DNA of 64,000 bases, from the NCBI GenBank assembly GCA_049999805.1, contig JBNGIO010006255.1, positions 341,821-405,820 of the forward strand, read 5' to 3'. The notes under the pieces were generated by a model, which was not told the origin of the DNA, searched no databases, and was given only the letters and a program-made list of their open reading frames with translations. A program made the translations under genes and the position numbers. Numbering within the stretch: position 1 is the stretch's first letter; every line of letters begins with the position of its first letter. Positions 35,375-57,571 of this stretch are shown here, in pieces. This DNA is from Folioceros fuciformis (Eukaryota).

Positions 35375-35641
35375 ATGTGTCTGCCATGCTTCGGATGGGG
35401 AGGTGCCCGCCCTCACGGTGCTCCACACCATCCGCCTCCGCNNNNNNNNNNNNNNNNNNNNNNNNNNNNNNNNNNNNNNNNNNNNNNNNNNNNNNNNNNN
35501 NNNNNNNNNNNNNNNNNNNNNNNNNNNNNNNNNNNNNNNNNATGGGGAGGTGCCCGCCCTCACGGTGCTCCACACCATCCGCCTCCGCACCATCCGCATG
35601 GTGGCGGGCACGGCCACGGCGGCCCGCACCATGGCCGCTAA
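35375..35641 (+). CDS. His/Pro/Gly-rich micropeptide (HP2), 39 aa once the artefactual gap is collapsed
   Basis: aacaATG context; MCLPCFGWGGARPHGAPHHPPPHHPHGGGHGHGGPHHGR*. Confidence 0.55.
   Translation: MCLPCFGWGGARPHGAPHHPPPXXXXXXXXXXXXXXXXXXXXXXXXXXXXXXXXXXWGGARPHGAPHHPPPHHPHGGGHGHGGPHHGR
35442..35541. other. 100-N scaffold gap with a 47-bp duplicated flank
   Basis: 35395-35441 is identical to 35542-35588. Confidence 0.95.
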
Positions 35642-43519: not shown

Positions 43520-43670
43520 GCACTTGCATCACACCCAAATAGTCACAACACTTGTTTCGGACCTGTGAGTTGAAAGCCAAGACACAAATGCTCCTATCCA
43601 AAGGAGCTAACAGGCTGCTTTGACCAGGCAGTGCGTGATTGTGGGCGACTGAGACACCAATGTTGATCAC

Positions 43671-46208
43671 ATGGCGATGCAGCTGTTACTGCCGGATGGC
43701 GCACTCTGGGATTCGGCCAAGTTGGTGACGCAGCCACGCTCTGCGGTGTTCCATATGCCCAACTTGTTGTCACCTCACCCAAGCTCTTCTGGTGTGAAGG
43801 GCGGGTGCAGGTTCCGCAACCGCCCGGAGCAGTACGACGCAAGCACAGAGGGGATCACTGAGAAGCACCGGCAGGAGCTTCTATGGCGCCACTTCTTCTC
43901 GCATCCCTCAGAGTGGTGGGACGAGAGAGCTGATAAAGAAAGCCCTCGCCATCCTGACTTCAGGCACAAGACTTCCGACGAGCCCATATGGCTGAGCAAC
44001 TCTCAGAAGCCGCCATGGGTGGATTCTCAGCTGGCCGAGTGGGAACTTCAGATGAAGGGGTCTCGTGCCTCTATGGAGCACTCCATGGCTCAGACCTTGA
44101 GGAAACGTTGTCAAGAGGCAAACCTGAAGGAAGCTGTTGCAGCTTTGGATGCCCTGGTGCAGGGAGGAGGTCATGTCACCACCGGCGTCTTCTATGGCCT
44201 CCTGCAGAGGTGTATGGCGCACAAGAATCTAGCTTGTGGAAGGCTTGTCCATGCTCTCGCTCTCAAGTGTGGGTACGAAGGCAATGCTTTCTTAGCCACG
44301 CACATCATCAGGATGTATGCGTCTCTTGGGGAATTGGATGACGCAGGGCTGGTCTTCACGAAAGTGTCCAGACCCAACCTCCACATGTGGTCCTGCATCA
44401 TCTTGGCCCACGCTCGACAGGGACGGCCCGCACATGCCATCGACCTGTATCGGCAATTTCGAGAGACGGGTGTGGAACCAAACAACCACATCTTCGTGGC
44501 AGTTCTCAAGGCTTGTGCTTCTGCTCAGGACTTGGTTTCTGGGAAGGAGATTCATGGAGATGTCCAGGCTTGCGCGATGATGGACGATGTTTATATTGGC
44601 AACTGCCTGGTGAGTATGTATGCCAAGTGCGGGGGCTTGCGTGATGCTCGCAAAGTGTTCGACAGTCTGCCTTCGAAGAATGTGGTGACATGGACTGCCA
44701 TGATCGCAGGATACACCCAACATGGACTCGGGCAACAAGCCCTGGCCCTCTATGGAAGCATGCAGCAGGAGGGCATCAGTCCAGCTGATCATGTCACCTT
44801 TGTGTGCCTCCTGCGAGCATGCGCTAGTTCACGATCCCTGCAACAGGGCAAGCAGCTTCACTTGCAGCTTCGTGAACAAGGGCTCGAAGGTGATGCAGTC
44901 ATCGGTAACAGCCTGGTGAACATGTATGCCAAATGCGGGTGCTTGGAGGATGCTCGAAACATATTCGACCACTTGCCCACAAGAGATGTTGTGACATGGA
45001 ATTCCATGATCGCAGGATGCACCCAACAGGGGCTTTGGCGAGAGGCCCTCGATCTGTATGCTAGCATGCAGCATGAGGGCATAACTCCAGCTGATCATGT
45101 CACCTTTGTATGTCTTCTTCAAGCATGTGCCAACTTGGGAGCCTTGCAACAGGGGAGGGAACTTCACTCCAAGATCCGTGCGACAGGCTTGGAATCTCAC
45201 TCCTCCACAGGCAACGGCCTCGTCAACATGTATGCGAAGTGCGGACAATTGCAGGAAGCTCTTACCGTATTCCACAATCTGCCAACCAAGTGCGTGGTCA
45301 CATGGACAGCCTTGTTGAACGGATACGCTGAACATGGTGATGCCCAACTGGCCATCCAGTGCTTCCGGCAAATGCTCCAGCACGGCATCCAGCCCAACGA
45401 GACGACCTTCCTCTGCCTTCTGGTGGCATGCAGTCACGCCGGCATGGTGTATGAGGGCCAGGAGTATTTCAGAATCATGGTAGACGATTACAGCATCCCG
45501 GCCACCGATTCTCACTACAACTGCATGGTGGATCTTCTCGGCCGGTCAGGCCATCTGGCCGAAGCCGAGCACGTACTTCAAACTAGGTCGTCCGAGCAGG
45601 ACGAAGTGGGCTGGAAATCTCTCCTCACAGCATGCAGAAGCTACGGCGACGTGGAGCGCGGCCAGCGCTGCTTCGACCGGATCGTGAACCTGGCTCCTGA
45701 CCACGCCAGCTCGTACATTCTGCTGGAGAACATCTACGCCGACGCCGGCAGGTGGCACGACGTTGGCAAGATAGAAAGGCTCAGAAAATCGGCAAAGGCG
45801 GTGAAGAAGCCCGCCAAGGCTTGCATCGAAGTGCAGCTAACCCTGCACGAGTTTACCGTCGGGGAAACCAGGGCCGATCTCTCCCCCACGCTCACCACCG
45901 TCTACGGCAGGGTAAAGGAGGAAGGAGGCCACATCCCGCGAACAGACCTGGTCCTGAAGACCTTGGACGAGCGGGAGAAGGAGCGGGCTCTGTGTGGCCA
46001 TGCCGAGAAGCTAGCCCTAGCGTACGGCCTCCTCAACACTCCCCAGGGCAGCCCGCTCCTGGTTACCAAGAACCTTCGCATGTGCACGGACTGCCATAGC
46101 AGCACCAAGATCATGTCCCGCCTGGAGCAGAGGGAAATAATCGTTAGAGACGCTCACCGAGTTCATCGCTTTGTGGATGGCTCCTGTTCCTGCAGGGATC
46201 GACATTGA
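43671..46208 (+). CDS. PLS-class PPR protein with DYW:KP (DRH-type) domain and N-terminal OSB-like PDF motif
   Basis: 845 aa; KKPAKACIEV, HAEKLA, NLRMCTDCH, C-terminal CSCRDRH; N-terminal WWDER...HPDFRHK...IWL...PPWV. Confidence 0.95.
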   Translation: MAMQLLLPDGALWDSAKLVTQPRSAVFHMPNLLSPHPSSSGVKGGCRFRNRPEQYDASTEGITEKHRQELLWRHFFSHPSEWWDERADKESPRHPDFRHKTSDEPIWLSNSQKPPWVDSQLAEWELQMKGSRASMEHSMAQTLRKRCQEANLKEAVAALDALVQGGGHVTTGVFYGLLQRCMAHKNLACGRLVHALALKCGYEGNAFLATHIIRMYASLGELDDAGLVFTKVSRPNLHMWSCIILAHARQGRPAHAIDLYRQFRETGVEPNNHIFVAVLKACASAQDLVSGKEIHGDVQACAMMDDVYIGNCLVSMYAKCGGLRDARKVFDSLPSKNVVTWTAMIAGYTQHGLGQQALALYGSMQQEGISPADHVTFVCLLRACASSRSLQQGKQLHLQLREQGLEGDAVIGNSLVNMYAKCGCLEDARNIFDHLPTRDVVTWNSMIAGCTQQGLWREALDLYASMQHEGITPADHVTFVCLLQACANLGALQQGRELHSKIRATGLESHSSTGNGLVNMYAKCGQLQEALTVFHNLPTKCVVTWTALLNGYAEHGDAQLAIQCFRQMLQHGIQPNETTFLCLLVACSHAGMVYEGQEYFRIMVDDYSIPATDSHYNCMVDLLGRSGHLAEAEHVLQTRSSEQDEVGWKSLLTACRSYGDVERGQRCFDRIVNLAPDHASSYILLENIYADAGRWHDVGKIERLRKSAKAVKKPAKACIEVQLTLHEFTVGETRADLSPTLTTVYGRVKEEGGHIPRTDLVLKTLDEREKERALCGHAEKLALAYGLLNTPQGSPLLVTKNLRMCTDCHSSTKIMSRLEQREIIVRDAHRVHRFVDGSCSCRDRH

Positions 46209-47196: not shown

Positions 47197-50100
47197 ATGG
47201 ATCCCCGGGGCTTGGTTCCCCCAGGGACTGCGCACCAGCAGATGCTGCAGCAGCAGGCGGCGCACCAGCAGGCGCTGCACAGGCAGGCGTTGTTGCAGCA
47301 TCAGCAGCAACAGCAGAATCTGTATGCGCAGCAGAGCGGGTACCAGCAGGGAGGGATGAGCCATGTGAACGGTGGGGCGGCAGGGTCTCAAGCGAAGCCC
47401 GGCGGTCTGCGCGCAAGCCGGGAGGGAGGTTTTGCCGACCTGAATGCGGAGCCGCCGGCCAGCGACGGTGAGGCGGATGGTCCGGTTCCCAGCGACAGCA
47501 CTCCCAGTGCGGCCACCATGCCGCACCAGGAAGGCAGCAGGTATTTCGCCGAGCCGTGTGTGGTTTTGGTGCTGAAAAGTGACGGGGAGGAGGGAATTGT
47601 TGATTCTGCTGCCACGTGTATTGAGATTCCGTCTTTTTCTTGTATCCTGCGCTGGTCAGGGCGTCCCCGCCTGAAGAGAAGAAGAAGAGGAAGAAAGGGA
47701 GTAAGGAAGGCCCGGTGGTGAAAGATGGACTAGAGGATTTGAGGAAGTCAGCCAAGCCAGCGAAGTCACGCGCAAAGCCTAAGAGCGAACACCTTGACAC
47801 GGGGCTGGACGGTGATACGGATTCGCAAGTAACGGGCGTTCCGACCACGAGAGAGGAGAAACTCAAAAGCTTGAAGGCGGTACGATGAATGAGGCCAAGC
47901 CAAAGCTTGGAGTGCGCTTTTTGCTCCTGCTCGTTTCACACCGAGGTTACTTATCGTTGTCCTACAATTTGTGCAGGGTCTCGTGCACGTTGCAAAGAAG
48001 CTCCCAAAAAACGCGCACGCGCAGTTTTTTCTGGGGCTCATGTTTCAGCGCTTGGGGCAGCCTGCTAAAGTGAGCATTTTCTTAGACACGGTCGTTTTCT
48101 GCGATGATGCAAGTTGAGCACTGTATTTTGAAAAATCTTCTACATAGCTGCAACTTCACATCATTGTCTCTATCCTGGCAGGCCGCCACATACTTCGAAA
48201 AGGCTGCCGAGATCCTTAAGCAGTCAGAGGAAGAGAGTGGGCAAAACCGAGCGCAGTTCCTTCAACTCGTTCAGATCCACCAGGCAGAGGTCGGGTGCTG
48301 TAGGATTTTGAGTTGTGGAAGGATATGTTCAGAGACTGCTCTTGACCTGAGGGGAAAGCTTACTGAATATCAAGATCTGAATCATGTTTTCGTAGATTCT
48401 TCTAATATAGCAACCGTTGGGAATGCAGTGTTTGTTGCACAGCAACCTCATGGTTCAACTGGGACATTCGGGGAAAGAGCTGAAAAGGGAGGAGTTGGAG
48501 GGCGTGATCAGTAAGGTCAGGGAAGGGGCACAAGAAGACAGTGGCCAAGCTTCGATTTGGAACACTTTGGGATTGCTGCTTTTCAGGACTGGGCGAGTAC
48601 AGGTGATCTTGCTTAACGCTGAATATCGTTGCTCTCAATCTCTCAATTTTATGCTCATGTCTTTGTTGTCTTTGGACAGAGTGCTGTGGCTGTTTTTTCT
48701 GCACTGTTGAGCATAGTTCCAGACTATCTGGATGCACTGGCCAACCTGGGTGTCGCTCATATGCAAAGGTAGTGTTATCAGATATACTACTTACGAAAGG
48801 TTGAGATTCCTATGTGGATGCCAAGGTCCTTAATGAGTAGGGGAACTTTTTCCATGGAGCTCCTAACAGTCGATTCTGAAATTGCAGTGGACATCTCTTG
48901 AATGCAATGCGTTGTTTTCAAGCTGTGCTGGAAAAGGAAAGAACTCACCCAGGTGCCTTAGTAAATTACGGGGCCCTTCTGATACATCAATATGGTTTCT
49001 CAGGTTTGCACCACCCATTCAAACACGTGTTGTGCATCGAATTGTACTTGTTTCCAATATTAAATTGTCTTTGTGAACTGTACGTTTAGGGACAGCAGCT
49101 AGATCTGGGGGGTACAACGGTGTTTACTCCTTGCAGCACACTGCGGCTGTCGCTGCTCAACAATATCTGCAGTCTGCCGTGAAGGATGATCCGAAGGCTG
49201 CTCATATATGGTCCAATCTTGCCGCAGCTTATGCAGCATCTGGCAGCATATGGGATGCAAATAAGTGCTTAGAACAGGTACGATATTTACACAGCTTCTA
49301 GGTTGAGTGAATGTCTTCCACTTGTGATTTGTTTCTTCTTGGGAAATGTTTATGGTATCTCGTATTTCAGCACTCTTGCCCCCTAAATCGTGTTACTTTT
49401 GGGTTCTTTGCAGGCAGCAAAATTGGAGCCGTATAGGATGTCAACTCGGTTTGCTGTCGCTGCTCATCGGTTACGGGATGTTGAGCGGCTGGATGGTTCC
49501 GCGGAACAGGCTGAGCAGCTCAACTGGGCAGCAAATGAAATGGCATCCCTTTTACGAGAAGGGGACTCTACCGTGCAGCCTCACCTGGCATGGGCAGGTT
49601 TAGCTATGGTTAATAGGGCGCAGCATGAGACTGTAGCTTCGTTTGAGGGAGGTGGATTGGACCTCAAAGAAGTAGAGGATCGGGCTATTCGAAGTCTTCA
49701 CCAGGTCAGCATACGGATATCCGGTCAAGTGAATTTGGCAAGAGGATGAAGTGTTGGTGCTGTTATTGTATTTCTAGCTTTTCTCACAGAAATCTGGGGT
49801 ACTTGCAGGCAATAGACGAAGATCCAAACAATGCTGTCCCGTGGCATCAGCTTGGATTACATACACTATGTACTTTACAATTTGGGGATGCACTCAAGTA
49901 CTTCAGAGCAGCAATTGCTAGACGGCATAACTGCCCAGTGTCATGGTCCAATTTAGGTGACGTTCGTGACCCCTTATTGATGCTTACGTACACAGGCCCT
50001 GCAGAGATTGAGCAGTTGCCGCTGTTCTTAACTAAAGGCAGAGAACAATGATAGGGTTACCGTCATGTGTGAAGAACATGACTGAAAACTGTTGACTGTC

Positions 50101-50863
50101 TCATGCAGGTATTGCTCTTCAGTTCTCGGACGACCCATCTAGTGCTGAAGCCGTGTATAAACAGGCCCTTGCTCTTGCTCGTCCAGAGCTAGTACACACT
50201 ATTCTTTCAAACCTGGGGAATCTTTACCGGCAAAAGAAGCGTTTCAGTGAGGCTCATGCTGTTTACCGGAAGGCGCTGGAGCTATGCCCCGACTACGCAC
50301 CAGCTTACAATAACCTGGGCCTCCTGCACATTGCAGAAGGGGATTGGGATCTTGCAATAGCGTCATTTGATAGGGCTTTGGCTGCAGATCCTTACTTTGA
50401 AGCGGCGAGGTCCAACAAGATGAAGGCAGAAGTGTTGGCACAAGTCGGTAAGAGCTCACTTTCCACTAAGCCAACCTCATCACAACCACCAAATGCTCCA
50501 GTTCTTCCAGTCCCAAGTCCTGCTTCTGATACCCAAGTGCTGCTTTCTTCAGATCACCCACTGAACCTAGCCTCAGCATCAGGGCAAGGTTCAGAAGTCG
50601 TCCACTCTTCAGAACCACCTCAACACAAAGCTCCACACCAATCCCATGACCTGCAGTCATCGCAGTCTGTACCATGTATACCGACAGTCCAAACCAGCCA
50701 GCTCCCTTTTGGTCCATCAGTCGTCAATTCTTTGCAAGTGCCGCAACTTGCTTCTTCTAACTCCATGGCTACTCTGTCTGTCCCCTCGCCTGTAGCTGCT
50801 AGAGCGTCGTCATCCCGTCAATCTCACCAGCGAGAGCCCTTTCCGCTGCCTTCAATTTCTTGA
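47197..50863 (+). CDS. TPR-repeat protein (resembles the At5g63200 family) with Gln-rich N-terminus and Ser/Pro-rich tail, multi-exon
   Basis: ADLNAEPP, REEKLKSLKAGLVHVAKKLPKNAHAQFFLGLMFQRLGQ, IWNTLGLLLFRTGR, SNLGNLYRQ, YAPAYNNLGL. Confidence 0.85.
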
Positions 50864-51480
50864 CGTGGGTGAATTTTGTTTAAACAAATAACATTTTATG
50901 CGCACGCCGCATGGCGGACGTCTCTTCTTTACGTGTTGGGCTGGGTCCGGACCAGAGATGGTTTCAATTTTAAATTGCGTTGTACATTAGTGTCGGTGTG
51001 AACATGTGGAAATGTGCAGTACAAGTAAAGAAAGTTACTCATTCCTCCATTCCGTTTTTTTAGCAAGATGTATATGCACGTAGAAGCACCGCAGGGCGGC
51101 GCTAACAAGCGGCCCTGTGGGCCTTTTTACGGGATGGAGTGTCTAAAGTCGCCTAGTACCCTATCGTACCATAGAATTTGGCTCGAGGATGCTTGTTTCC
51201 CAAGCTGCCCTCGCATAGCTCCCGCTCAAGGATGCTTAGCCATGGAAATTCAAATGGAATGGATCCCGTGTGACTATCACTTCTGCAGGCAGGGGATAGG
51301 TTTGGTTACCATTTCCTTCTTCTAGCCATGCCATGTAGAGGAAGTTCTTCAATTAGAATAATATTCAATAACTATAGGGGCTTCATCACCCACTCCAATG
51401 CTAGGTAGATCATTATCTGAATTACTTTATTACGTAATAAATAAATAAGAGTTTAGTTGGGTTTAGGGTTTAGTTGTGCA

Positions 51481-51692
51481 GCAAAGTGGAGGAGATGAAG
51501 CTATGTTGAGTGATCCGAACCTTTGTCGCATAGACTTTGTCTTCTCATCTCAACAATGGAGACTAAGCTTAGACCCAGTTCCTCTTTGTTGTTTAGGTAT
51601 GCAGCAAAGGGGAGGCGATGAACCCAGCAAAGGGGAGGCGATGAACCTATGTTGAGTGATCCGAATCTTTGTCGCATAGACTTTGTCTTCTC
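51481..51692. repeat. Local direct duplications (about 66 bp and 23 bp), probably a TE remnant
   Basis: 51481-51546 resembles 51627-51692; CAGCAAAGGGGAGGCGATGAACC is tandem at 51602 and 51625. Confidence 0.75.
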
Positions 51693-52350
51693 TCCTTCCT
51701 AGAATCTTGTACCCACACTTGACACACTACCCACTTGTCATTTGTACGTGTAAGCTGAAAAGAACACAACACAAGGCTTGAAGCTCCCGCTGAAAAGAAC
51801 TCATCACAAGGCTTAAAGCTCCCAGATATTGATTTTACTGCGCAGTAAGAGATGACAAGACTATACTTGTTCAAGAGCATTATCTCCTGCCCACACCTTA
51901 TCCCACGCAGGGCAAAGCCAATGTCCTCCCTTATAGTGTGGGAGAAGTGGGTTAAGGGGAGGGGGATCAATGCTGCCAAATGGAAGTGACGAATCCTGGA
52001 AGCCTTAAAACTGCCCATGCCTTAGACGCTGGGCGGCGAGGGAGCGTGAAGGAGAAATGGTGCACGCTTGTGCTGTCGCCTCGCCTAGCCAGGTTCAGTG
52101 CAACAGGCAACAGAGGGGAACCCGCGGGGGAGTCGCCCCAACCCTGGTTGAAGCGGGGGAGGGAATCCTGGCCCCCGATTGGTCCCTGCCGATTACTGTC
52201 AGTGCATGCACCTGGCCGCGCGCCCGGCCTGCCTTCCAAACATATTTATTGTGTGAGCAGGCTGATTTGTTGGACATCACGATCTCCAGCGCCAGCGAAG
52301 CCTCCCGTTCCACTTGGCCCCGTTCTTCCTGGTGGGAGGCAGCAAGAGCC

Positions 52351-53334
52351 ATGGCCGCCGTCTCGGCATGCATCAGCAGCGCCTCCTTCGCCGGGCAGGC
52401 CGTGCTGAAGGCGCCCTCTGAGCTCTCCAGGAAGGTGAACGGCGGTAAGGCTGTGGACGCCAGGGTCACCATGCGGAAGTCGCAGACCTCCAAGTCCGAT
52501 AGCATCTGGTACTGGATCGTGAATTTGTTACTGGCCCAGGGAGGGAATTGGGTGGGGGTGGGATGGAGGGTGAGACGGGGTTGAGTGGTGGATTGATTGA
52601 GTGAGTGAGTGATGGAATTGTTGTGGTGTTGGTGGTGTGATGTGACTTGACGCGACGTGACGTTAACGCTTTGGGTTTGCAGGTACGGGCCCGACAGGCC
52701 CAAGTACCTCGGCCCGCTCTCCGGGGAGCCCCCGAGCTACCTCAAGGGAGAGTTCCCGGGCGACTACGGGTGGGACACGGCAGGCCTGTCGTCGGACCCC
52801 GAGACGTTCGCCAGGAACCGGGAGTTGGAGGTGATCCACTCGCGGTGGGCGTTGCTGGGGACGCTCGGGATCGTGACTCCCGAGATTCTGGCCAAGTACG
52901 GGGTGCCTATCCAGGAGCCCGTGTGGTTCAAGGCCGGAGCGGTCATCTTTTCCGAGGAGGGGCTGAATTATCTGGGCAACCCGGCTCTCATCCACGCCAA
53001 GAGCATCCTGGCCGTGCTGGCCGTGCAGGTGATCTTGATCGGGGCGGTGGAGGGATACCGCATTGCGGGCGGGCCGCTGGGCGAGGTGACCGACCCGCTC
53101 TACCCCGGCGGGGCCTTTGACCCCCTCGGCCTCGCCGACGACCCCGACACCTTCGCCGAGCTCAAGGTGAAGGAGATCAAGAATGGAAGACTGGCCCAGT
53201 TTTCCGCCTTTGGCTTCTTTGTGCAGGCCATCGTCACCGGCAAGGGCCCCATCGAGAACCTCCTGGACCACCTGGCCGACCCCTCCAACAACAACGCCTG
53301 GGCCTACGCTACCAAATTTGTCCCCGGGAACTAG
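52351..53334 (+). CDS. LHCB: Major LHCII chlorophyll a/b-binding protein (Lhcb1/2-like), one intron 52509-52682; mature chain has no Met or Cys
   Basis: Transit peptide ...[14 protein letters not shown] trimerisation motif, [42 protein letters not shown]. Confidence 0.97.
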
Positions 53335-54052
53335 ATCATCCGTGAACGCGGTTCCGCTCCCGGGCCGTCAAGCTCGCCCGCTTGAAACCCAATTCGCTGA
53401 TGTCCTCCGCGGCTGGAACTTTTGCGTGATGCCGACTACAATGTCATCCCACTTGTGTACAACGTTTCTGTTTCTTTCGCTGCTGCTGCGACAGCATATC
53501 GCACTCCCCCGTCAGCAAGTTCGAGCAGTCCATTGCCAAATGTCGAATGTCTTGCACCTAGAAGCCGAATGTGGAGAACTTGGCCAGCATTCCACATCCG
53601 GAGCGCTGCGTCTGCACTCCTGCTGACGGTTGTGTAAACTTCTTCTCTCCTTCACGATGCTTTGTTTGTCTCATTTGCCTAATGAATGCAGTTTGTGTCG
53701 TTTTGATTCACATTGTCTACGGACAGCGTCTCAATTTGTGTACCTGCCATGCTCTCCTTCTCCGGCCTCCTCGCTGTCCTCTGCGCAATCCGCAGTCGCC
53801 CTGGTCACACCTGCTGGAAGGACCGTGTTTCACATTCAAACGAATCCGAGACGTATCACATTTGAATGGTTTGCTGCCCTAATCATGGACGAAAACTAGT
53901 CACAGTCGACTTTCTGCGATTCATGGAAACTGCGACTTTTGCGACTCGCTCGTTGATCCTGTCTTGATCGAAATGGGTCTGCTGGATTGACAAGAGGAGT
54001 AGCTGACAGCTGTTGCGCAGAGCAGGGGAACGTGCGGAATTGGATTGGGAGA

Positions 54053-56067: not shown

Positions 56068-57571
56068 ATGAAGATGCGTGTCGCCAATGCGGTGTCCAGA
56101 GCTCTGCGGGCTTCGGCGGCGGCTTCACGCCGCTCCCTCCACTCCGGTTTGTCCGCCTGCCTCTTTCGCTGTAGGGCTTGGAAGTGTGGATCCAGCTGCA
56201 NNNNNNNNNNNNNNNNNNNNNNNNNNNNNNNNNNNNNNNNNNNNNNNNNNNNNNNNNNNNNNNNNNNNNNNNNNNNNNNNNNNNNNNNNNNNNNNNNNNN
56301 CGCCTGCCTCTTTCGCTGTAGGGCTTGGAAGTGTGGATCCAGCTGCATGTGGCTTGATAAGCACTCGGGTCACGCGCGTCCATCGTAAGATCAGCTGGGA
56401 GCTTGACGCTTGTGCCGCTTTCAGCTGCGGCGGTGGCAGACGAATCTTCGAGATTCTGCTCATGATGTTGTCCCGGCAGCTGCCTGTGGTCAATCTGCAT
56501 GGAATTGGAGGAATGGAGTGAACGGGGAGTCAGGGTTGGTGGACTGTATGTTGGGGGGGAAGGGGCGAACGGTCTGAATTGGGAGCCATGGGAAGCTAAG
56601 GCACGCGGGAAGGGTGCGGCTTGATACTGAGCTGATTTGTGTCGCCTTGTTTGCAGAGGGGAGGACATTGGTGCCTGCCTTTGTGATCAAGGGCGGATCG
56701 GCAGCTTCTTCGCAAATCACCCGAGCCGCCGCGGAGGCGCAGGACAGCAGTGCTAGAGGATGGTTTCCGGCAGCTTTTTTCCTCTCAGCTGCAGGTGACA
56801 CCCTGTAGTCTTCCGTCGCTTGTCTCATGCATTATGCTCGGAAACTGTAAGGCATGTTCCAGTTCCTACAACAAAGTCTGGCCTGACCTGGTCACCCCTG
56901 TCACTCCAGCTGTGGTTGCCCAAGACCAGAACTTGGAGGCTGCCGAAGTAAGTTCCAAAGTTGGGGAAGTGTTCTGCTTTGTGAATTTGATGTGCTTACT
57001 GTAGCTTAGTTCACAATGGGTTTAATCGTTTTCGCACACAGGTCGAGCGGACGTTCATCGCAATCAAGCCCGACGGGGTGCAGCGAGGCTTGGTAAGACA
57101 TCCCTGCGTAGTCACAATCAGTTTGTTCTGTCCTTTTTTTTTTCAACATTTTCCTCACTGCGTTTGATGCAGATTTCTAAGATCATCGGGCGGTTCGAGA
57201 GGAAGGGGTACAAGCTGGTAGGAATCAAGCTGGTGACACCAAGCAAGGAATTCGCCGAGCGGCACTACGACGATCTCAAGGGGCGTTCCTTCTTCAACGG
57301 CCTCACCGACTTCCTCAGCTCCGGACCGGTGGTAGCCATGGTGTGGGAGGGGCAAGGTGTGATCAAGTATGGGCGGAAGTTGATTGGCCAAACCAGCCCG
57401 CAGGCCTCAGAGCCGGGCACTATCCGAGGGGACTATGCCATAGTGGTGGGAAGAAACATCATCCACGGGAGCGATGGTCCTGAAACGGCGGAGGCAGAAA
57501 TCAAGCTCTGGTTCTCTCCCGAGGAGCTCAACGACTATAACCTCTTCAGCGAGAAGTGGCTCTACGAGTGA
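56068..57571 (+). CDS. NDPK3: Nucleoside diphosphate kinase, organellar NDPK3/4 type
   Basis: Arg/Ala/Ser-rich presequence, [48 protein letters not shown]. Confidence 0.94.
56201..56300. other. 100-N scaffold gap with a 47-bp duplicated flank (NDPK intron 1)
   Basis: 56154-56200 is identical to 56301-56347. Confidence 0.95.

Follow-up and report, generated by a model that had tools for sequence, protein, structure and literature searches.

Few proteins of a green cell are as abundant as the light-harvesting complex II (LHCII). Sulfur-sparing antennae are known from one green alga, which possesses the partly depleted LHCBM9, and from cyanobacteria, where they are phycobiliproteins. In the latter case, Mazel and Marliere reportedly described in 1989 (Nature 341:245) a sulfur-starvation phycocyanin of Calothrix/Tolypothrix PCC 7601 from which methionine (Met) and cysteine (Cys) have been eradicated and which is said to be used when sulfur is scarce. 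Here, we describe a complete version of such depletion in embryophytes and their algal relatives, starting from a gene on the plus strand of a 64,000-nucleotide stretch of DNA from the hornwort Folioceros fuciformis (contig JBNGIO010006255.1; this whole stretch is referred to as the window). The gene occupies positions 52351..53334 and encodes a major LHCII apoprotein, the mature chain of which contains neither Met nor Cys.

The nearest eukaryotic case for comparison is Chlamydomonas reinhardtii LHCBM9. This protein contains four sulfur atoms versus six to seven in the other LHCBMs, and its induction by sulfur deprivation has been attributed to this difference (PMC4344250). The authors propose that the two conserved Met residues of LHCBM9 may be essential, and Natali and Croce report for it a chlorophyll a/b ratio of 1.08, slightly below that of other LHCBMs (PMC4344250). 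For an LHCBM9 homologue from Parachlorella, an increase of 2050- to 5106-fold in the absence of sulfur is reported (PMC4724957).

Like LHCBM9, for which a sulfur-sparing role has been proposed, the window protein belongs to the major LHCII paralogs and is depleted of sulfur, and canonical paralogs coexist with its counterparts in related species. It differs from LHCBM9 with its four sulfur atoms in having none at all, and the two proteins may or may not be orthologous. Parachlorella kessleri LHCB1 (1779_t), the homologue induced by sulfur deprivation, stems from a trebouxiophyte, and other trebouxiophytes, Coccomyxa and Myrmecia, possess sulfur-free LHCII. The phycocyanin of strain PCC 7601 is reportedly likewise an alternative light-harvesting protein without Met and Cys; unlike the LHCII encoded in the window it is a prokaryotic phycobiliprotein from an unrelated family. 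The searchable literature, outside of which lie subscription journals and supplements, yielded no account of an LHCII free of or depleted in sulfur from bryophytes or streptophyte algae. The window gene is best read as a sulfur-sparing isoform that would be comparable to LHCBM9, but complete.

Composition, identity and transcript of the Folioceros LHCII

The mature chain comprises 228 amino acids when counted from Arg42 and contains 0 Met and 0 Cys by translation, as had been claimed in an earlier note on this DNA. Cleavage of the transit peptide between Met41 and Arg42 is inferred from homology. Sites are numbered according to mature pea and spinach LHCII. The protein encoded by the second exon (P0001) aligns without gaps to the chains 1rwt_A and 2bhw_A, its residues 1-215 matching 17-231 of the chains, such that the P0001 number plus 16 gives the position. 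On this scale, five substitutions fall on positions 73, 79, 135, 188 and 191, where the solved chain 8c29_G carries Met, Cys, Met, Met and Met. A Leu codon (TTG, 52852..52854) takes the place of canonical Met73 in helix B, Ile codons replace Cys79 (ATC, 52870..52872) and Met135 in helix C (ATC, 53038..53040), and Gln (CAG, 53197..53199) and Ala (GCC, 53206..53208) are encoded at the sites of Met188 and Met191 in helix A. All five codons, singled out already in the earlier note, lie in frame on the plus strand and read as stated there. Going by LHCII crystal structures, we take the five sulfur sites to lie in or beside three membrane helices. In addition, an Asn codon (plus strand, 52966..52968) stands at the position of canonical Asp111 in the lumenal loop.

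The assignment to the major LHCII proteins is well founded. The protein matches PF00504 (chlorophyll a/b-binding) over all profile positions (1-162 of 162, E=1.2e-47), is 80-83% identical to angiosperm proteins named 'LHCII type 1' and matches solved LHCII chains with E values of about 1e-119 to 1e-122 (7e-122 for 8c29_G, ~7e-119 for 1rwt_A and 2bhw_A). The top match among solved structures, 9vfj_2, is a fused chain of 620 amino acids named LHCI-2, and the next best matches are LHCII chains. WYGPDR, the N-terminal trimerisation motif of LHCII, is present and spans the exon junction, and YGPDR is invariant in an alignment of nine sulfur-free rows. The same nine rows all carry E65, H68, R70, G78, Q131, E139, E180, N183, R185, Q197 and H212, eleven positions that presumably correspond to the chlorophyll ligands or helix ion-pair partners of the crystal-structure papers. 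The Pfam match, the solved chains and the nine-row alignment thus agree with the earlier description of a major LHCII apoprotein with intact WYGPDR and chlorophyll-ligand residues. Canonical LHCII (Lhcb1/Lhcb2; 1rwt, 2bhw, 8c29) and the window protein share ungapped alignment at ~80-83% identity, WYGPDR, the ligand residues and, in many genes, the position of the phase-2 intron. The window protein differs from canonical LHCII in lacking the five sulfur residues as well as Cys at two further positions where it is common in canonical forms, and in having Asn111 instead of Asp.

The precursor of 269 amino acids is encoded by two exons on the plus strand. The coding part of exon 1 (52351..52508) starts with the ATG at 52351 and specifies the transit peptide of 41 amino acids (52351..52473). 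Codon 42 (Arg of RKS) opens the mature chain at 52474, where the span given in the earlier note begins, and the exon codes for 12 residues of it before ending two bases into the Trp codon. A phase-2 intron of 174 nt with GT..AG ends (52509..52682) separates Trp and Tyr of WYGPDR. The coding part of exon 2 (52683..53334) specifies the remainder of the mature protein (216 amino acids, P0001) and ends with a TAG stop codon, whose last base is 53334. While the reading frame on the plus strand had been recognised correctly in the earlier note, the intron had gone unmentioned. GC content at third codon positions (GC3) amounts to 0.90 in the coding sequence versus an overall GC content of 0.51 for the window.

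Contigs from four public sequencing runs were compared with 52200..53700. Among these runs, X1 is a DNA run, X2 is from the same organism A and X12 is from organism B. Without a single difference, a 677-nt contig of X2 follows 52308..52507 and continues at 52682..53156. The 174 nt that it leaves out have GT..AG ends; the contig extends over at least 200 letters on each side of them and confirms the end of exon 1. X1 contigs (records 1 and 3), on the other hand, enter the intron from both flanks. We conclude from the intron-less X2 contig and the X1 contigs reading into the intron that a spliced RNA of the gene exists. X2 is not on record as RNA; transcription is deduced from the contig without the intron. 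The transcript has a 5' untranslated region (UTR) of at least 43 nt (52308..52350, plus strand), given by the start of X2 contig record 24 at 52308 with 0 differences, and no ATG was seen by eye between 52308 and 52351. The 3' UTR measures at least 366 nt (53335..53700, plus strand); X2 contig record 30 agrees with the window at every position of 53232..53700, and the compared stretch ends at 53700. Contig depth, which cannot rank genes, was 773-927 in X2 and 10-17 in X12 for the exact gene, and thousands to tens of thousands for contigs with canonical-type differences in conserved bins.

Organism B provides a view of the constraint on the protein. An X12 contig spanning 52898..53166 shows 21 differences from the window gene, and all of those listed are synonymous (19 of 19, two differences in one Leu codon being combined). 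A second contig from this organism is identical over 53146..53261, a region that includes the codons for positions 188 and 191. At the level of sequence, this pattern marks an orthologue under purifying selection and not a decaying copy. The earlier note had considered that the gene might be unexpressed or relaxed; the spliced transcript contig and the exclusively synonymous differences in the copy of organism B show otherwise. Since the gene is conserved and expressed, we take the protein as functional. The best reading is that it would act as a major antenna protein of the Lhcb/LHCBM type, for which pigment binding and trimer formation are predicted. If so, it would be a natural counter-example to the view that LHCII needs its conserved Met residues.

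Sulfur-free relatives, canonical paralogs and their phylogeny

Homologues were collected by searches with P0001, with a profile of nine sulfur-free rows and with the Coccomyxa protein P0045, plus one cluster look-up, which together yielded 256 proteins. Each search gave the best 120 of 4,000-5,500 matches, and as all three queries are sulfur-free, the sample is enriched for sulfur-free forms. The profile search brought few further ones, its top ranks being fused gene models. After 73 of the 256 proteins had been dropped because of a length above 330 amino acids or at least 10 gaps, 183 rows remained aligned to P0001. Among them, 125 have Met-Cys-Met-Met-Met at the five sites. Over the region encoded by exon 2, Met and Cys sum up to 5 to 7 in 125 rows and to 0 in 23 rows. 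Two plant-type LHCII proteins in the collection, P0096 and P0101, are filed under Salmonella enterica and Lachnospiraceae bacterium and most likely represent plant contamination.

The closest protein among the matches listed is P0012, a transcript-derived EukProt entry from the hornwort Nothoceros aenigmaticus (95% identity by BLASTP, 94% over the exon-2 columns). Next in line are liverwort proteins, at 89% for Calypogeia fissa and 88% for Riccia fluitans. The window is most likely nuclear DNA of a hornwort. Sulfur-free forms are held by Nothoceros, Calypogeia fissa, Sphagnum jensenii, S. troendelagicum, Coccomyxa viridis and Coccomyxa subellipsoidea C-169. Three further sulfur-free proteins carry the portal code Mesen1, which we take to denote Mesotaenium endlicherianum. 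[Myrmecia] bisecta P0205 is also devoid of Met and Cys but was among the long models that were dropped and is not counted in the 23; the Riccia fluitans form retains one Met. In those sulfur-free rows in which the N-terminus is present, the part from the presumed cleavage site to YGPDR is free of Met and Cys as well. The gene is thus, as judged by these alignments, not peculiar to the Folioceros genome but part of a widespread set of sulfur-free LHCII genes. Hornworts, liverworts, Sphagnum, a zygnematophyte (Mesotaenium) and trebouxiophytes all show the sulfur-free state.

The same taxa also possess canonical partners. Pairwise counts of Met plus Cys are 0 versus 6 in Nothoceros (canonical P0174, with Met-Cys-Met-Met-Met at the five sites), 0 versus 8 in Calypogeia (P0099), 0 versus 5 in Sphagnum (P0075) and 0 versus 5 in Coccomyxa viridis (P0217). 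Furthermore, contigs in the runs of organisms A, B and C diverge into canonical-type sequence at the helix-A site. The possibility, raised in the earlier note, that all paralogs of the lineage share the substitutions does not hold in view of the canonical Nothoceros protein and of these canonical-type branches in all three organisms. Within one and the same lineage, sulfur-free and canonical paralogs viewed side by side share lineage-specific residues and differ at the sulfur sites. Chlorophytes provide a graded series with one to three Met/Cys (Haematococcus, Apatococcus, Symbiochloris, Sanguina and Chlamydomonas moewusii). The graded chlorophyte rows include P0198, P0201, P0206, P0218, P0234, P0238, P0242 and P0254, and in these positions 73 and 79 are always replaced first. 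No vascular-plant-named row with fewer than three Met plus Cys occurs among the matches listed, which is no proof that vascular plants, Marchantia or Physcomitrium lack a sulfur-free form. This raises the question why no sulfur-free form with a vascular-plant name is found among them.

When 25 low-sulfur rows, in each of which Met and Cys together number no more than one, were compared with 136 canonical rows carrying four to five sulfur residues at the five sites, only four columns differed consistently. Position 73 is Leu in 24/25 low-sulfur rows and Met in 134/136 canonical rows, position 79 is Ile in 24/25 versus Cys in 128/136, and position 135 is Leu or Ile in 25/25 versus Met in 136/136. 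The fourth column, 111, is Asn in 24/25 low-sulfur rows, and canonical rows have Asp in 114/136 and Asn in 22/136 cases. D111N is the sole position unrelated to sulfur that consistently tracks the sulfur-free state. Replacements at the two remaining sulfur sites vary: Gln or Leu is present at 188, and Ala, Asn, Val or Thr at 191. Beyond the five sites, Met or Cys occurs in 60 of the 136 canonical rows, mostly at two tolerant positions, versus none of the 23 sulfur-free rows (Fisher p=8.8e-6, a value that overstates the evidence as the rows are phylogenetically related).

All trees were calculated after removal of the five site columns. They concern a short conserved protein, the groups compared were defined once earlier trees had been inspected, and gene conversion among paralogs could blur the history. 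In an IQ-TREE analysis of 92 rows, the window protein groups with its Nothoceros counterpart (SH-aLRT 97), and both are joined with the liverwort sulfur-free forms (93). This assemblage is excluded from a group of 33 canonical streptophyte rows (94), among them the canonical one of Nothoceros and those of Marchantia, Sphagnum, ferns, seed plants and Netrium. Rows of the Chlamydomonadales type, which retain two to three sulfur residues at the five sites, are found elsewhere in the tree than the streptophyte sulfur-free rows. With 45 rows, the sulfur-free sequences of embryophytes, seven in number, come to lie on one side of a branch with a support of 75. Adding Mesotaenium to them costs nothing (p-AU 0.50), joining the streptophyte with the Coccomyxa-type sulfur-free rows is not rejected (p=0.158), and a group of sulfur-free with canonical Coccomyxa rows is rejected by a narrow margin (p=0.018). 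Among the metagenomic proteins, one without sulfur has a canonical sister (SH-aLRT 94-95). A clade that unites the sulfur-free with the canonical sequences of hornworts is not rejected either (p-AU 0.41), which speaks against the hornwort gene being ancient.

A single clade comprising all 16 sulfur-free rows was strongly rejected (lnL difference 122.9, p-AU 6.6e-6). It follows that green plants acquired or lost the sulfur-free state on more than one occasion. The trees would nevertheless be compatible with a single old sulfur-free lineage in streptophytes. A wider scenario, which we put forward tentatively and regard as possible although the odds are against it, holds that sulfur-free LHCII is an old streptophyte invention that predates land plants and may be shared with trebouxiophytes, that it persisted over hundreds of millions of years in all three bryophyte phyla and in subaerial algae as a response to sulfur scarcity, was re-invented independently in some chlorophytes and lost in vascular plants, and that a working LHCII needs neither Met nor Cys, at odds with the proposal of two essential Met. 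As a marker for the sulfur-free lineage, the phase-2 intron in the Trp codon of WYGPDR was considered and discarded. It is present in the sulfur-free loci L029, L030 and L034 as well as in many canonical LHCII genes and, being common to both, does not mark the former. A continuous reading frame across this junction is lacking in 29 of the 74 metagenome loci examined, most of these 29 being canonical. The intron looks old.

A proposed sulfur economy and competing explanations

In our view, there is a probability of roughly 50% that the window gene encodes a sulfur-sparing LHCII isoform from whose mature chain selection keeps Met and Cys away. Selection for low sulfur itself is favoured by the sulfur-specific depletion, by replacements that vary between lineages, by the lack of any newly acquired Met or Cys and by the recurrence of the state in separate lineages; judging from the alignments, the sulfur-free state is apparently maintained by selection. 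A zero-sulfur paralog, with none instead of five to seven sulfur atoms per monomer, would allow the antenna to be kept or rebuilt when sulfate is scarce, and the sulfur of canonical LHCII could be recycled into proteins unable to do without it, in line with what has been proposed for LHCBM9 and, reportedly, for the cyanobacterial phycocyanin. Sulfur supply would be the selective agent in this case, and up-regulation under sulfur limitation is predicted. The elemental economy of the most abundant membrane protein now becomes testable in tractable bryophyte models.

A number of observations weigh against this reading. The transit peptide still contains three sulfur residues, two Met and one Cys. 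The SLIM1/EIL-like sites, to which the earlier note had pointed, occur at chance level: the window contains 15 matches versus 10.9 expected, and 12 of 100 shuffled sequences reach 15. No gene for sulfur metabolism was detected within ~9 kb upstream and ~4 kb downstream of the LHCII gene, where ten open reading frames (ORFs) were scanned, six of them without an assigned family. Since the transcript turned up in a run for which no sulfur limitation is known, the gene is not strictly starvation-specific. The companion change D111N hints at a functional shift that would be unrelated to sulfur. With the hornwort clade at p-AU 0.41, the tree would agree with the hornwort gene either being an ancient paralog or having branched off recently from LHCII of hornworts. 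Finally, no residues are oxidised more readily than Met and Cys, and the pattern would also fit oxidation resistance.

Oxidation resistance is the main rival and a live one. It would imply that Met and Cys were removed from an antenna exposed to singlet oxygen and peroxide arising around LHCII, thereby avoiding damage by Met-sulfoxide formation and unwanted thiol chemistry, in organisms that are poikilohydric, exposed to high light or prone to desiccation, and irrespective of sulfur supply. Exactly the two most oxidisable residue types are gone, and the presence of the transcript without known sulfur limitation is easily accommodated. Sulfur-free or strongly depleted forms come from bryophytes and from mainly terrestrial, subaerial, lichen-forming or snow-living algae (Coccomyxa, Myrmecia, Apatococcus, Symbiochloris, Mesotaenium and Sanguina), habitats that would fit, although the sampling is biased. 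On the other hand, the oxidisable residues Trp, Tyr and His are not reduced, with mean counts of 4.1, 8.9 and 3.0 in sulfur-free rows versus 4.6, 7.8 and 3.1 in canonical rows, and the nearest known analogues are regulated by sulfur deprivation. All in all, we consider it rather unlikely that protection from oxidation is the driving force.

Alternatively, the protein could be a functionally specialised LHCII in which the helix-core substitutions together with D111N tune the binding of pigments, quenching, the make-up of trimers or the docking to photosystems, the loss of sulfur being a by-product. The position of the five sites in or next to the three membrane helices agrees with this, as does the occurrence of Asn111 in all but one of the 25 low-sulfur rows; this residue, however, is also found in the 22 canonical rows mentioned above. 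The replacements at 188 and 191 depend on the lineage and have nothing in common except that they lack sulfur, and the absence of additional Met and Cys from 23/23 sulfur-free rows is not required by site-specific tuning. Evidence from LHCBM9 cuts both ways: its chlorophyll a/b ratio is slightly below that of other LHCBMs, yet the reconstituted protein resembles them in solution (PMC4344250). This explanation therefore appears doubtful to us.

That the sulfur-free state has no adaptive meaning, being a neutral inherited oddity of one old paralog lineage or the outcome of relaxed drift at tolerant sites, seems very improbable: the change from Met or Cys to Leu or Ile is a conservative one and the embryophyte sulfur-free rows on one side of a branch (support 75) may share ancestry, but against neutrality stand the rejection of a single sulfur-free clade, the paralogs that share residues within a lineage yet differ at the sulfur sites, the extra Met/Cys confined to canonical rows (60/136 versus 0/23), the exclusively synonymous differences listed for organism B and the graded chlorophyte series with one to three sulfur residues.

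Upstream region and neighbouring genes

Upstream of the LHCII gene, a SLIM1-like motif is located at 51641, ~710 bp before the ATG. It resides in the second copy only of a 68-nt direct repeat (51479-51546 and 51625-51692, 94% identity, 146 nt apart). A 35-nt tandem pair follows at 51754-51823. The earlier note had also pointed to such a site upstream of APK (4853). The APK-like locus is ~47 kb away, and the scanned neighbours are unrelated to sulfur. No second LHC-like sequence was detected within the 64-kb window.

The LHCII gene is flanked by two exon-sized frames on the plus strand, neither related to sulfur metabolism, one with TPR repeats (50096-50863) and one with a nucleoside diphosphate kinase (NDK) domain (57026-57571). 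Two runs of 100 N each represent assembly gaps (35442-35541 and 56201-56300), and neither touches the LHCII gene. Six kb upstream, a single-exon ORF of 851 amino acids (43653-46208, plus strand) encodes a PPR protein with an E motif and a DYW deaminase domain, of the type known for organellar RNA-editing factors.

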